A stretch of 64,000 bases of DNA from an uncultured Chlamydiae bacterium (GCA_963828125.1 CAWHDP010000002.1:1344001-1408000); one strand, 5' to 3'; numbered from the stretch's first letter, positions 15,001-33,000 are shown. Made by a program: the numbers.

Positions 15001-18000
15001 TGACAACGCACGGCTGAGCCGGCACAACATGCACCTCTTTCCGCGGAGACTGGCCAGACATACAGATTACAGCTAAACCGCCCCATATCGCTAACTTGCA
15101 CATAGACACCTCTTCCCTTCATCCGCACCCTACTCATCCTCTCCTCAAATTTCAATACAATTTTAAACGAAAACCTGGTAATCTCCCACTCATGAATCGG
15201 ATTTTTCTCATCATTCTCTCTGTGACGACCTCCCTTCTTTACGCTGAAGATTTCAGCTTTCGAGGAAAGCACTTCGTCGCAAGCTACATGGATTGCGACA
15301 TCAGAGCTTTAACCGATCTCGATAGTCTCATCCGCGCCATGGATGGCGCAGTCCGCGCATCAGGAGCCACGATCCTCGATCAAACTCCCTATGTTTTTCC
15401 GCCCAATGGCCTCACCATCGTCTACCTTTTGTCTGAAAGTCACGCGAGCCTCCACACTTACCCCGAGCATGGCGCCTGCTTTGTCGACCTGTTCACTTGC
15501 GGCGATCTCTGCTCACCGGAACGTTTTGACGAGGCCCTCCGGAATTACCTACAGCCAAAAACCGTGAATGCGCGTCTTTTTTTGCGCGCTGACGAAGTCC
15601 AAGAGATTGTCCATTCTCCATGAAAAAATTCTCTATCCTCCTTTTATTAGCCCTCCTATCGGCCCTTTCCGGGGAGCTGTTGTACTATCTGAAGGACGGC
15701 TTTAGCGCAAGGCGAGTGCAAAGCTTGCCCTATCCAGTGGCAGAAGGGTGGGACACGGATGCTGGAGGAGCGCTCGAACAGCCCTTTCGCTATATCGGAC
15801 GGGGCAGGCAGTGCTTTGCCTTCAGTAGCGCTGACAGGAAATACGTCCTCAAACTCCCTCGCACAGACATCTACAAAACCCCATTTTGGGTTCGCTCGCT
15901 GCCCCTCCCCTCTTATCGGGCCCGCCTGGAAGCAGACCACCTCGAAAGGGAGACATTTATTCTCAACAGCTTCCAACTCTCGGCAAGCGAACTCAAGCGC
16001 CAGACAGCTCTTATAGCCCTCCACCTCGGCCAGAGCGCCCCCAGCGGCAAGGAGCTCACCCTGATCGACGCCCTCGGCTGCACCCACCGGTTCCCCCTCC
16101 ACAAAACCCCCTTCATCCTCCAACTCAAACAACCCATTTTGATGCAATCATTTCAAACCGCTCTTGCCAAAGGAGATCAGAAAGAGGCCGAGCGGATCCT
16201 CGACGCTCTTCTCGCAGTCATTGTTGAAAGGGCAAGCCAAGGGATCCTCAATCGAGACCGCTCCTTTCTCCGCAACTATGGTTACGATGGGCAAACGGCC
16301 TACCAAATCGACGTCGGCAGTTTCTTCCGGAAACCCGATTTGACCCCCTCCGACGCCTACGAAAAATCGATCCGCGATTCGACAGACCCCATCCTCGAAT
16401 GGCTCGCCCAAAACGCCCCACACATGCGCGATTATTTCAGCGCGGCGGTTCAAGAAAACGGACTGTCTCTGAAGCAGAGAGCAAAAACGGGCTCATGGCC
16501 AACAAAACCTGGCCACCGCTCCCATCGCAGTACCCCCGACTCCTAAGACGACTGCAAGCATAATGTTATCGGAGCGGTCTTCCTCCGATTTCGCCGCAGA
16601 AATGGCAAAGAAAATCGAAGCGGCATAGCAAGCAATCACCGAAACCCTAAGAGCCCAGACACGAAAGCAATCCGCACGCGCAGGGCAGAGCCACTGGCCT
16701 AACAAAGATCGGTTCGATGACAAGAAGGGCTGATTAACAGGCTCGATCAAGTCGAATATCATATTTGCATCCTTTATAGTTTTTTTTCAATGCATCACCA
16801 GTTAAAATCTTGTTCATAGCCGAGCTCAATGAGCAGATCTCCGATCTCCTCTTTCACCGCGGTTTTATGTTCCTCTTTAAAATACTCCTTCCATGCACCG
16901 ACTTTCCCTTTGAAAAAACTATACCCTTTTCCAAAGTTCGATTTATATACGTTGTATAGATCCTGATCGGAAATATCGACTTTTAGCGCAGCTGCAATTT
17001 TCTTTAGTTCTCCCAAAGCGTCCAAGTCTGTAGCGGCGCCGCCGTGATTCCCCATCAGCTTGCTGAAATCCAAGGTGCAGCATGCCGGCGAATGGACCCA
17101 ACCCTTGAAATAGAGCGTCTCCCTTCTTAAATCCTTCCGGATCATGAGAAGCAACTTCTCGTCATCCGAAACAATCGACGCTAGCGATGGATCATTCAAA
17201 TGGATGTGTTTATAGTGGTTGAGTAACGATACGATTTGATCTCTTGGATCCCGTTTGATAAAAAAATTGATGCAGCTGTGTTCAAGAAGATAGTTTTCCA
17301 ATGTGACGGTAAAGGGTGCGTGCAAATGCAAGAACGTCCCATTTTTTTCGTTTTTGGCCCAGATCTGATCCATGGTTTTCCGGTTCCAGGGCGCCCGGCC
17401 GCTTGAAAAATAAATATCCTGAGGATCTTCAGTTAAGGTCTTATTCTCCGCTAAAAGTTTCGTCTCCTCTTGATATTTCTTCGCCCAAAAGACCTTCTTC
17501 CCTGTTAACGCAGTCAAAACGGGGATCAGCAAGTGGGTTCCTGTCTTGGGTTCCGTAAATAAAACAAAATTTTCAGACCACAACGATAGATGGACGCAAA
17601 TCGACGCCAATAATAGCGCCTTAAAAAAATTTAAACTCATACATTCTCACCTTTGTTCTTGTTGAAATTTGAGCATTCTGTGCATGGAGTCGATTTGGAG
17701 GAGTTGATCGGTCATCGAGAACCGAGTTTCGAAAATCCGGTGGGCCTCCTCCGCCATTTTCCACGCCATCTCAGGATCTCTCTGAATGTGGGCCATGTGT
17801 CCCTGGATTTGTCGATAGATTTCCTCTGAGGATTGGCTCGTGTCAACGTAAAACACAGCATCGCCAAATACCTCCTTTACAAAGGCGTTTTGATCCGAGA
17901 TAATCACAGCGGACGCTGCGGCTGCTTCGAAAATCCGCGAGGAGGGGATTTGAAACTTATTGTGGAGAGCAGAATGGAGAACGAGTACAATTCCGTGCCG

Positions 18001-30000: not shown

Positions 30001-33000
30001 GTTCAGGATTGAAATAGGTCGACCACAAACTGAGATTCGAACTCGTCCGAATGAGAAAGTCGCAGTTCGACAAGATGAGAGCATCGAGGAGAGCCTCTTC
30101 TCCGATTGCATAGGGAGATGGCGGTTGAGAGAGGTGAACTGGCATCACTCCGTTTGAGCGATGAGCGTCGTAGGCGATCACGGAGCCGGGGAACGTCTTT
30201 TTCATCTGGCTCAAGAAAGCAGCTTCGTCAGTGGCGACAAAAATCTTGTAGGGCTGATCGGACGGAATGTGGGCAAAGACGGCTCCGATCGCCTCTGCGT
30301 AGGGGACGCGCGGCGCCTCTTTTTCTTTGTCGGTTCCCCGATAGTGGATCCCTAAGACAAAAACATTCTGAAAGTGACGCTCGATAAATTGCGCGGCCTT
30401 TTCGAGGATCGACTGCTGGATATGAATATATTTTTTTACGAGGGCAGAAGCCTGCTCCCGCTTCAGTTGCCATCTGGCATGAATGGCAGCAAACGACCCG
30501 TCCTTGAATCGAGAGGCATTATTTTGAAGTGCGGAGATTTGGAGATGAATCGGCTCGAAGTAATAGTTCCACCAATTCGGGCCGTAATCGGGATCAAAGT
30601 AGAGTCCCGACTGACCAAAATCAACAGCCAGCTCCGAAAAGCCGCTGTAGGCCCCCATTTCATACAAGTGAAGGTGACCCAAAACGACATTGGCACAAGC
30701 AAACATCCCAGGCTCGCGAAGAGGCGAAGCGTCGATGATCAACAACTCGCCCGCCAGCAATCGCAGTGAGAACCCCAGCGCCACTAGATTCCTAAAAATC
30801 ATAACCTACAGACCTACAGATCCGAAGAGACAATTAAATATTTTATCTAAAAAAAAAGATATGATTTTTTGATGGGCTGAGAGAGAAACGTTGCAGCGGG
30901 ACGGGCCATTTTCATAAATTCATCCCTCCGTATATACCGAAAATAACACCTGGCCAAAGCAATTCCCGCTGAAGATTTTTCGCACAGATAAATAGTTTGC
31001 GTTAATCCACCGCGTTTGCTATCTTTATTTCCTTCTTAAACGAAGATAACCCGTTAGGGATCGTCCAACAATAACTTTTAGAAAGGAACAGCCACTCAAA
31101 TTGTTGGGGCTGGAGGACAAGTATTGGCTCTGAATATCGACGGATCTGATGATCATGCACTCAAGCAAGCTGTAGCTCAAACGGTTGCCAAATTCGGCGC
31201 CGTTGATATCATAGTCAATAATACAAGCGCAACATGCCTTACTGATATTTTACACACATCTCCCGAACAAAAGGATTTTTTATGGCAGCCGCGTCAGCAA
31301 GATCTGTAGCACGGAACTCATTGTTTCACTTTCCTCCTGCTGATATGATTATAAAGCAGTTGTCAGACAACGTACAGCTAATCGAAGCATTGCGAATAGA
31401 GAATTTAACGCCGGATTTTTTCCCGAATCTGGCAAAGCACATTGGCATCTACAAAGGACGCTTGACTCTCCCGCAAGTAGCGTACGTAGCTGAAAGAGCG
31501 ATATTTTCTGCTGGCATAGATATACCAGAATCGGGGCTAGACTTTGAAAAAAACGCCTAGCAGAAATTCCAAGCCAGCACCGACAAGTAAATTTTCCGTT
31601 TAACAAAATCATGACAAAGTTCATGCTATCCCCCTCAATATCAGGGGAGATGGTGAGATGCTCGACATTTCAATTACAGACGAAGATAGAGAGAAAGCGA
31701 GAACCGGACGTTTTGAACATCCGGACGTTCATGTCCAGAAGCGGCTACACTTGCTTTACTTTAAAGCGCTAGGGTACGCCCATAAAGACATTTGTCTTCT
31801 GGCTGGGGTCTCATATACGACTTTGGAGACCGTTTTGAAGTTGTACCATACACAGGGCTTCGAAGAAGTGTGTAATGTGACCTACCCATGCCCCGGTGGC
31901 GCATTAGATTCCCATCGCGTGACGATCGAGGAATACTTTCGCAAAAACCCTCCAACAACAGTTGCTGAGGCATGTAAGGTGATCAAAGATCTGACGGGCG
32001 TTGAACGGAAAACCACCCAAGTTCGTTGTTTTTTGCTGAACTTGGGCATGCGCCCGAGGAAGGCGGGGGCTTTACCTGGAAAAGTAAACCCGGAAAAGCA
32101 AGAGGCCTTTAAAAAAAAAGCCTAGAGCCAAAACTCCAAGAAGCCGCTGAAGGGAAGCGGCATGTTTATTTCGCGGATGCCGCTCATTTTATCTACGGAA
32201 GTTGCCTGGGTGTCATTTGGTGTTTTGTTCGGTGCTTTATCGCGAGTGCAACAGGGAGATCCCGTTTTAATGTTTTGGGGGCATTAAACGCAGTCACTCA
32301 TCATATGGTGACAGTCACCAATACCTCCTATATCAATGCCTGGTCTGTAGTCGATCTTCTTCGTGAGTTGCGAAGAATACACGTAGATGCCCCCGTAACA
32401 GTGATCTTAGACAACGCGAGATACCAGCGATGCTACGTTGCAGAAAAGGCTGCGCACATGTTCAACATAGAACTCCTGTACCTCCCTCCGTACTCTCCCA
32501 ATTTGAATTTGATTGAGCGTGCATGGAAATTCATCAAGAAAAAAGCGCTTGTGAATCGCTCTTTTGACAGCTTTCAATCGTTTCAGATGGCTATTAGTGA
32601 CTGCATAAAGAAGTTCCCCACTGACTATGCGCGAGAGCTAGACACGCTGATGACTTGGAATTTTCAGTCCTTCTAAAATTCCAAGGCATTGACCGACTTA
32701 GGTATACCAAAATTCATTAAAACAACATCAAAAATCCCATCGCTAAACTGTAATTCTTCTGCATCCATGACTTGAAAAAGTATTTCTGGATGTAAGACCT
32801 TAGCTCTTTCAATCATTGCACTCGAAAAATCAATCCCAGTTACAATTCCCCCTTTTTCTAGGGCAATAGCTGCAACATAACCTGGCCCACAAGCAATATC
32901 CAACACCCTATCATTGTGTTTAATCATCGCAGCATTGGCTAAAGCTAGGGCCGCTTTGGGGGTAATGGAACCAAAACATTCATGATAGACATCTGCAACT

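Follow-up and report, generated by a model that had tools for sequence, protein, structure and literature searches.

Why would a chlamydia keep its own supply of activated sulfate, and where would it spend it? The question is raised by an island at 16795..30802 of the window, the whole 64,000-nucleotide stretch analysed here from an uncultured Chlamydiae bacterium (genome G000, 95% complete). The first-pass annotation had described fifteen genes forming a self-contained island, rare in the order, that activates sulfate only to decorate a glycan.

Organization of the island

The island holds 15 ORFs, 13 on the minus strand and two on the plus strand. They encode five PAPS-type sulfotransferases, four glycosyltransferases (one across two ORFs), CysD, CysN, CysC, a TauE permease and an MFS protein. 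Signal peptides in the list are heuristic predictions.

16795..17640, minus: SULT-fold sulfotransferase A, signal peptide (Sulfotransfer_1 E 7e-6; 5'-PSB, 3'-PB, C-terminal KGxxGxW)
17647..18654, minus: GT-B glycosyltransferase, signal peptide (Glyco_trans_1_2; 49% homologue in cassette L182)
18779..19576, plus: GT77-like glycosyltransferase, signal peptide (Nucleotid_trans, DxD; likely start ATG 18806)
19564..20379, plus: sulfotransferase, signal peptide (Sulfotransfer_3 under the Pfam cut-off; both PAPS motifs)
20308..21531, minus: HS6ST/HS2ST-like sulfotransferase with C-terminal CBM-like beta-sandwich, signal peptide (Sulfotransfer_2)
21528..22433, minus: sulfotransferase, signal peptide (Sulfotransfer_1 E 5e-7; likely start 22346 after GGAGG)
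22411..23256, minus: SULT-fold sulfotransferase B, signal peptide (Pfam, family profile and fold search)
23210..24694, minus: split GT32-like (DxD) glycosyltransferase, C-terminal piece, membrane segments (Gly_transf_sug E 3e-13)
24537..25052, minus: N-terminal piece of the same split gene, signal peptide (L262 match)
25060..25629, minus: APS kinase CysC, Sec-type signal peptide (TIGR00455 154.4 bits, cut-off 138.7)
25661..26845, minus: MFS transporter, candidate APS exporter (MFS_1; distribution in relatives; 394 aa from ATG 26845)
26845..28074, minus: CysN, GTPase subunit of ATP sulfurylase, no signal peptide (409 aa from ATG 28074)
28079..28960, minus: CysD, catalytic subunit of ATP sulfurylase, no signal peptide (NF003587 322 bits, cut-off 195)
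28964..29923, minus: TauE/SafE anion permease, candidate sulfate importer (Pfam; adjoins cysD also in G177 and G166)
29945..30802, minus: NodZ/FUT8-like GT-B fucosyltransferase-like protein, signal peptide (NodZ 27.5 bits, just below cut-off 28.3)

The reported union of PAPS synthesis, sulfotransferases and glycosyltransferases was borne out and is richer than first described, and profile searches upheld the domain calls (CysD, CysN-type GTPase, APS kinase, TauE, MFS, GT4-like, GT77-like, GT32-like and NodZ-like). The count of fifteen holds for ORFs; the genes number 14, because 24537..25052 and 23210..24694 match two parts of one gene at a metagenome locus (L262:4791-6575), the former its start (80% over 148 aa) and the latter its later part (79% over 454 aa). 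The frame changes inside the overlap of the two ORFs, through either a real break or an assembly error.

Clusters of cysDNC with sulfotransferases and glycosyltransferases are an already known kind, and in Vibrio sp. KMM 8419 the presence of all three in one cluster is described as a hallmark of sulfated polysaccharide synthesis (PMC11641403). The island shares this arrangement of sulfated capsule/EPS clusters, with its own cysDNC as in the Vibrio capsule cluster. However, the Vibrio cluster includes nucleotide-sugar and ABC export genes, and the term 'signal peptide' is absent from that article (PMC11641403), whereas the island enzymes bear signals and the 15 ORFs include no gene for nucleotide-sugar synthesis, polymerase, flippase or export. 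A self-contained island is thus not supported. The rml genes and a Wza-type gene are found beyond its borders, and rml genes also occur in same-genus genomes without the island. Nor is the sulfotransferase/glycosyltransferase block unique in the order, because six of its genes sit together in another chlamydial genome (L182). That genome gave no APS kinase match, and the island's two halves therefore need not work as one unit.

Sulfate activation and the lack of matches to a reductive branch

CysD scores above the NF003587 cut-off and below that of TIGR02039; Spirochaetales and Planctomycetota are among its named relatives, at about 60%. The top NCBIfam matches of CysN are CysN/CysNC, under their cut-offs. 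The two genes are adjacent, 4 bases apart, as in an ATP sulfurylase pair. CysC, the only APS kinase in the genome, carries the P-loop, LDGD and DVKGxY/FTGI motifs and the invariant columns of the family, and it aligned to solved APS kinases with an E of 3e-35. It departs from the soluble cytoplasmic norm of these kinases by a signal-like N-terminus (a heuristic call), with no ATG, GTG or TTG start between signal and P-loop.

The genome contains no match to NIR_SIR (sulfite reductase). Its single PAPS_reduct match is cysD itself, leaving no CysH, and its single PALP match, reported in the first-pass annotation as TrpB, leaves no separate cysteine synthase; controls were positive. Because these searches for assimilatory sulfate reduction found nothing, the earlier proposal that PAPS serves sulfation is supported. 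The single inositol-monophosphatase-family gene could be CysQ or SuhB.

The MFS gene was found in all eight genomes with a stand-alone, signal-bearing CysC, and cysD in six of them; because a single genus accounts for six of the eight, these cases are not independent. Among 18 genomes with a signal-bearing fused enzyme, cysD was found in none and the MFS gene in one, and G177, which has cysDN and signal-less enzymes, lacks the MFS gene. A strict partnership of the MFS protein with cysD is ruled out, as 24 of the 31 MFS-bearing genomes gave no cysD match. In those 24, mostly from one family, the gene mostly lies beside one read as ferrochelatase, and the protein may therefore have another substrate. 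The C-terminal domain of 325-aa exported kinases matches HxGH nucleotidyltransferases weakly (E 0.005); that it stands in for ATP sulfurylase is a guess.

Sulfotransferases and glycosyltransferases

Where two PAPS-type sulfotransferases and a weak third had been reported, Pfam and motifs point to five ORFs. All five have a 5'-PSB motif and four a canonical 3'-PB; the 3'-PB of 21528..22433 is atypical, without the usual Ser. The fold was confirmed for the two enzymes modelled, 20308..21531 and 22411..23256. By motifs, and for those two also by fold, all five are assigned to the PAPS-type sulfotransferases. Sulfotransferase B (22411..23256) gave no match in a single-sequence PDB search and required a family profile, which matches cytosolic SULTs (E 4e-18), and its fold search retrieved SULT7A1 (TM 0.59). 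Sulfotransferase A is 27% identical to it, and the two resemble small-molecule SULTs.

The profile of 20308..21531 matches 5t03 (E 2.4e-16), as expected of an HS6ST/HS2ST-like catalytic domain. Its structure model (pLDDT 92) matches HS6ST as the top fold, HS2ST and CBM6/CBM35; the TM by query to the top match is just 0.36 because of the extra domain. Since the best solved match by both profile and fold is a heparan sulfate 6-O-sulfotransferase, and a CBM-like domain is attached, at least this enzyme probably acts on a glycan.

The Atlas neighbours of 29945..30802 are NodZ/FUT8/O-FucT. No Gmd for such an enzyme scored above the cut-off in the genome, which also gave no match to NodA (a weak negative, its control being silent everywhere) or to the NodC-like chitin-synthase family (control query positive), and the suggested Nod-factor-like mimic is not supported. 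Nor is a glycosaminoglycan-like mimic, as searches of the genome for GT64 and chitin-synthase families found no backbone synthase, although the GT64 negative is weak, its control being silent everywhere.

Predicted export signals

Signal peptides were called with our own hydrophobicity rule, not SignalP; in a scan of 110 flagged genes, about 8 to 9 were read as cytosolic false positives. All nine transferases and CysC were positive (10/10) and CysD and CysN negative, against a background of 382 positives among 2007 genes in the genome and 7 among the 47 other genes in the window. In the N-termini a basic n-region is followed by a short h-region and, ahead of the catalytic domain, by small residues; LEA or AxA often closes this stretch.

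This pattern recurs in relatives. Signals were found in 27 of 120 CysC homologues, with all of the best 10 among them but no homologue ranked 46-120. A CysC tree, built by a quick method with no bootstrap, placed them in two separate clades, that of this CysC (35/39 rows) and a Sat-CysC clade (15/18 rows); the 41 loci submitted to it gave 35 rows, five being left out because the P-loop pattern used did not catch them and one yielding no row. In the HS6ST-like family, signals occur in 43 of 58 close homologues and 0 of 15 distant ones, and in 0 of 73 non-chlamydial sulfotransferase relatives; in the SULT-like family they occur in 87 of the 105 scorable proteins. Among six loci of relatives with a recognized sulfotransferase near the kinase, both enzymes bear signals in G282, G256 and G343 and neither does in G177, G244 and G086.

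The first-pass annotation had missed these signals, which change where the pathway would run. Because nearly all the enzymes bear them, including the CysC that finishes the activated donor, the chemistry probably takes place beyond the bacterial cytoplasm, on the pattern of the eukaryotic Golgi.

A proposed compartmented pathway and its alternatives

From the observed gene identities and motifs, the lacking reductive-branch matches and the conserved signal-like N-termini, we infer export, APS transport, an ATP supply and an acceptor along a line to which we give an even chance. TauE would import sulfate, and CysD/CysN would form APS in the cytoplasm. APS would then pass the inner membrane, probably via the MFS protein, and Sec-exported CysC would convert it to PAPS with host-derived ATP in transit through the space concerned, either the periplasm or, if type II secretion follows, the inclusion lumen. 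There the five exported sulfotransferases and four exported glycosyltransferases would build and sulfate a glycan from nucleotide sugars that come at least partly from the host. The acceptor would be an already exported bacterial molecule, with a glycoprotein or glycolipid, either secreted or on the surface, as the likeliest candidate.

In favour of this line are the signal pattern and its conservation within clades, the MFS gene in all eight genomes with a stand-alone, signal-bearing CysC, four full-length nucleotide translocases, a secretin adjoining pseudopilin-like genes, the lack in this genome of a Gmd above cut-off and of any MetK match, and an island with no polymerase, flippase or exporter. 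Against it count the heuristic signal calls, the split glycosyltransferase, the one atypical 3'-PB, the quick tree, the MFS gene in genomes with no cysD match and the cassette in a genome with no APS kinase match. A precedent is offered by Chlamydia trachomatis, whose glycogen enzymes draw on host UDP-glucose within the inclusion lumen, a use of host nucleotide sugar by bacterial enzymes like that proposed here; but they depend on type III secretion and lack signal peptides, and sulfation is not involved (PMC4829429).

A broader reading, which we put forward tentatively, is that many of the environmental chlamydiae operate their own Golgi-like compartment, and that this island yields a heparan-like sulfated glycan attached to secreted proteins. 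Host ATP, SAM and nucleotide sugars, and often PAPS as well, would be present in the periplasm or inclusion lumen; normally cytoplasmic sulfo-, glycosyl- and methyltransferases would be exported into it, as would PAPS-making enzymes on at least two occasions. The island would then represent a stand-alone exported APS kinase supplied by cytoplasmic CysDN via an APS-exporting MFS protein.

It is unlikely, though the best of the rival explanations, that the same exported enzymes modify host glycans, lipids or small molecules in the inclusion lumen or nearby secretory membranes, with bacterial PAPS topping up the host pool. No APS kinase match was found in 102 of the 144 genomes with a Sulfotransfer_1 match or in three of the five with an HS6ST-like enzyme, and 11 of 16 inspected sulfotransferase ORFs from APS-kinase-less genomes bear signals; the SULT fold of two island enzymes and the lack of a backbone synthase fit as well. 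However, use of host PAPS tells the source of the donor, not the owner of the acceptor. A second cluster of signal-bearing glycosyltransferases in the genome also encodes an exported collagen-like protein, suggesting bacterial proteins as acceptors, and the N-termini of some HS6ST-like relatives, which we read as lipobox-like, would anchor the enzymes on the bacterial membrane.

A conventional cytoplasmic pathway, in which the hydrophobic N-termini tether enzymes to the inner membrane face or are idle and machinery encoded elsewhere exports a sulfated polysaccharide, is improbable. It would need neither outside ATP nor an APS exporter, CysD and CysN are cytoplasmic, and a Wza-type export gene and rhamnose genes lie about 25 kb and 4 kb away; the Vibrio KMM 8419 cluster is modelled in this way (PMC11641403). 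The composition of the N-termini nevertheless argues for export, as does a signal on two separate kinase lineages that is absent from non-chlamydial relatives. Under the positive-inside rule, such N-termini send the C-terminus out.

Still less probable is a partly decaying patchwork at an insertion hot spot, in which a transferase cassette, an old cysC and an acquired tauE-cysD-cysN block share no product. The modules are found apart in relatives, GC differs between the transferases (47%), the cys block (51%) and an IS zone (43%), IS elements follow the island, one gene is split, and G119 has a broken cysDN and G216 a broken cysC. Yet the stretch from 30802 to 20308 is closely packed on a single strand, its genes adjoining or overlapping and no gap exceeding 49 bases, 13 of the island's 14 genes are intact with catalytic motifs, and kinase and sulfotransferase genes adjoin again in six loci of relatives. 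Assimilation to cysteine by a non-canonical route, for which TauE, CysD, CysN and CysC as first steps of that pathway and the 95% completeness can be cited, is highly implausible given the lack of CysH and sulfite reductase, the single PALP protein and the point that an exported CysC could not supply a cytoplasmic reductase.

Comparison with other sulfation systems

Rhizobial NodPQ/NodH/NodZ, Xanthomonas RaxPQ/RaxST and mycobacterial CysDNC/Stf pair a dedicated PAPS supply with the sulfation of a host-facing molecule, and their enzymes are cytoplasmic. The NodZ-like protein recalls the rhizobial system; unlike there, no NodA or NodC-like match accompanies it. The island also resembles the Golgi, where PAPS-dependent sulfotransferases and glycosyltransferases share an extracytoplasmic lumen, although no GT64 polymerase was matched here; one island enzyme has the fold of the HS 6-O-/2-O-sulfotransferases (PDB 5t03/5t05, 4ndz) at about 21% identity. 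In eukaryotes PAPS is a cytosolic product that is then imported, whereas in the island the last step of PAPS synthesis itself is apparently exported. Pontiella sulfatireligans, which is related to chlamydiae through the PVC superphylum, likewise has GAG-sulfotransferase-like genes beside glycosyltransferases in a putative sulfated GAG-like cluster; it is free-living, and the part of the article consulted mentions neither PAPS genes nor enzyme export (PMC7356697).

The literature searched (titles and abstract starts, most subscription journals lying outside) describes no chlamydial sulfotransferase or exported APS kinase. To our knowledge, periplasmic bacterial sulfotransferases are PAPS-independent, and ATP-using enzymes would not be expected beyond the inner membrane. 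If the compartmented pathway holds, an outer compartment would, through chlamydial energy parasitism, have become able to support nucleotide-driven chemistry. The MFS protein would be the first candidate for an APS exporter, and many putative glycan sulfotransferases of bacteria would become available, including a heparan-sulfate-like one of use for heparin engineering. The old idea that chlamydiae make a heparan-sulfate-like compound, reportedly advanced by Rasmussen-Lathrop et al. in 2000, would become testable.

Two further findings qualify the degradative genes that had been listed with the island. Of the five reported sulfatases, only one has the CxPxR motif; the other four have hydrophobic, membrane-like starts and weak LtaS/YejM-type matches. 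The heparinase-like gene exists, but it is also present in two of six same-genus genomes (G373 and G400) that gave no match for cysD, cysC or Sulfotransfer_1.

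Gene content of the island

The island (16795-30802) comprises 15 ORFs, 13 of them on the minus strand; matches in Pfam and NCBIfam identify CysD, a CysN-type GTPase, an APS kinase, TauE, an MFS transporter and GT4-, GT77-, GT32- and NodZ-like proteins, as the first-pass annotation had reported. Between 30802 and 20308 lies a single-strand run of genes in which neighbours abut or overlap. In a close relative, a single gene aligns with both GT32-like ORFs, one with its first part (80%) and the other with its later part (79%), so the island consists of 14 genes, one of which is split. 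Sulfotransferases had been counted as two or three; their presence holds, but five ORFs are of the PAPS type. The 5'-PSB motif occurs in all five, a canonical 3'-PB motif in four and a SULT-type KGxxGxW motif at the C-terminal end of two. The three Sulfotransfer_1 matches of the genome all lie within the island, which also holds the genome's single APS kinase, CysC (25060-25629).

Predicted export signals

A simple heuristic called Sec-type signals from a basic n-region, a hydrophobic core of 8 residues and small residues at -1 and -3. It was positive for all nine island transferase genes and for CysC, and negative for CysD and CysN. The rule flagged 382 of the genome's 2007 genes and 7 of the other 47 genes in the window, and no Suf, Rml or translation protein was among those 7; about 8-9 of 110 flagged genes scanned were apparent false positives. 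In cysC, no ATG, GTG or TTG start lies between signal and P-loop. Among the 120 CysC homologues listed, 27 carried a signal; the ten best all did, whereas ranks 46-120 had none. In a quick tree of 109 kinase domains, two separate signal-bearing groups stood out, with signals in 35 of 39 rows of the island CysC clade (support 96) and in 15 of 18 rows of chlamydial Sat-CysC fusions whose Pfam domains are intact (support 90). Positives made up 24 of its 35 chlamydial rows; three or more of the negatives were miscalls or truncations. Signals were also found in 87 of 105 members of the SULT-like family and, for the HS6ST-like family, in 43/58 close homologues, 0/15 distant homologues and 0/73 non-chlamydial genome loci.

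Clusters combining cysDNC, sulfotransferases and glycosyltransferases are already known from two reports (PMC11641403, PMC7356697). What sets the island apart is the apparent export of donor synthesis, an unexpected feature that turns up repeatedly in the order and would cost little to test. In the titles and abstract openings of a partial literature, we found no description of chlamydial sulfotransferases or of an exported APS kinase.

Proposed pathway

The best reading, to which we give even chances, is that APS is made in the cytoplasm, that exported CysC turns it into PAPS and that exported transferases decorate an already exported acceptor. The analysis establishes the gene identities, the motifs and the pattern of signals; the export itself, the transport of APS, the source of ATP and the acceptor are inferred. 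Sulfate would enter via TauE, and CysDN would form APS, which would leave the cytoplasm, probably via the MFS transporter (25661-26845). Stand-alone signal-bearing kinases occur in eight genomes, with cysD in six and an island-type MFS in all eight; signal-bearing fused kinase enzymes occur in 18, with cysD in none and this MFS in one. G177, another genome of the order, has cysDN and signal-less enzymes and lacks the MFS. This co-occurrence fits the MFS as a candidate APS exporter. Against this role, 24 genomes with the MFS gave no cysD match, and six of the eight stand-alone-kinase genomes belong to one genus. In G361, an island-type MFS shares one frame with a NusB/RsmB methyltransferase (L120:1477-3894).

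Exported CysC would then form PAPS, drawing on ATP that passes through the periplasm toward nucleotide translocases. The genome encodes four; such translocases import host nucleotides, according to PMC5381601. The exported transferases would modify an acceptor already outside. A secretin adjoins pseudopilin-like genes in the genome, and this system could pass the exported enzymes on to the inclusion lumen, where C. trachomatis enzymes are reported to use host UDP-glucose (PMC4829429).

Sulfotransferase families and acceptors

A 52-sequence profile of the family of 20308-21531 matched one solved structure, heparan sulfate 6-O-sulfotransferase (E 2.4e-16). The predicted model (pLDDT 92) has a fold matching HS6ST and HS2ST, and its C-terminal beta-sandwich matches CBM6/CBM35 modules and a lectin. 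Together, these predictions point to a glycan acceptor. The family of 22411-23256 and 16795-17640 (1853 representatives at E <= 0.001) matches cytosolic small-molecule SULTs.

The first-pass annotation proposed a glycosaminoglycan- or Nod-factor-like product. Neither a Nod factor nor a full glycosaminoglycan pathway is supported, because a polymerase, flippase, exporter and sugar-nucleotide enzyme are all lacking from the island and the genome gave no match to chitin synthase, NodA or GT64 (control searches for the latter two were also silent) and none over the cut-off to Gmd. Two side remarks of the first-pass annotation hold up less well: of the five Sulfatase-family proteins, only one has the CxPxR motif, and the heparinase-like gene also turns up in two genomes of the genus that gave no match to cysD, cysC or Sulfotransfer_1.

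A second cluster of signal-bearing enzymes lies elsewhere in the genome:

G000:C2:1240001-1260000 (locus L153): two GT25, three Methyltransf_24, pyruvyl transferase, STELLO, GT92 and GT2-TPR

The cluster also holds an exported collagen-like protein (L153:15319-17319), which suggests that the acceptors are bacterial surface proteins. Acceptors belonging to the host seem unlikely.

Distribution in relatives

CysD is rare in the order (9/401 genomes), and the named relatives of the island copy at about 60% lie outside chlamydiae. APS kinase was detected in 54/400 genomes and Sulfotransfer_1 in 144/401; both occur in 42 and the transferase only in 102, these relatives not being independent. In another chlamydial genome, which gave no APS kinase match, six genes of the island sit together as a cassette, with signals on all six. 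The HS6ST-like enzyme occurs in five genomes, two of which have the kinase, with a signal on both kinases. Exported sulfotransferases thus seem often to depend on PAPS not of the bacterium's own making. At all six loci with a recognised sulfotransferase near a kinase, the presence or absence of a signal agrees between the two.

A conventional cytoplasmic pathway is an improbable account of the island. We doubt still more that the island is a patchwork without a shared product. That its steps serve assimilation is scarcely credible, since, within the limits of a 95% complete genome, assimilation is ruled out by the missing reductive branch, which was confirmed (the searches gave no sulfite reductase, a single PALP protein and no PAPS reductase except cysD itself).

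Other arrangements were seen in relatives. Three APS kinases that bear a signal are fused to a small domain with a weak resemblance to HxGH nucleotidyltransferases (L079:9783-10760, L080:9285-10250, L082:2583-3572); they come from genomes that gave no cysD match and are possibly compact PAPS synthases. In G177, intact cysD-cysN adjoins a Sat-CysC (L039:15886-17424) that lacks a signal and has a sulfurylase domain that Pfam no longer recognises. An NAD-dependent epimerase with a signal peptide in G343 (L096:7460-8470) has as neighbours a sulfotransferase, a GT2, a Sat-CysC that also bears a signal, and a protein matching BclA_C weakly. Signal-bearing sulfotransferases with a common FLIIGAQKSGT-type motif, some in tandem, occur at L124, L125, L127-L131 and L133, in genomes that gave no match to APS kinase.

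Flanking regions

Four of five same-genus genomes searched keep the left flank (rml genes, pgeF, EamA, speD and 15620-16546), with unrelated genes after it. In other chlamydiae, the same kinase as in the island immediately adjoins pgeF-rml. A low-GC zone of IS elements extends from the right end of the island to tRNA genes at 46239.

15096-15623, + strand: S-adenosylmethionine decarboxylase with a signal-like N-terminus, as in 4/4 same-genus homologues
15620-16546, + strand: signal-bearing protein without Pfam match; four genome paralogues, kinase-like motifs by eye
31658-45324: low-GC zone (43%) with IS630-, ISAzo13-, ISL3- and DUF4277-type transposases, ending at tRNA-Lys/Glu
52904-56790: polysaccharide export gene of the Wza type, next to a 951-aa protein that has no Pfam match, the pair flanked by two epimerases

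The decarboxylase sits in a genome without a MetK match. The low-GC zone also holds RhuM, an AlbA-domain protein and an F-box/ankyrin protein.
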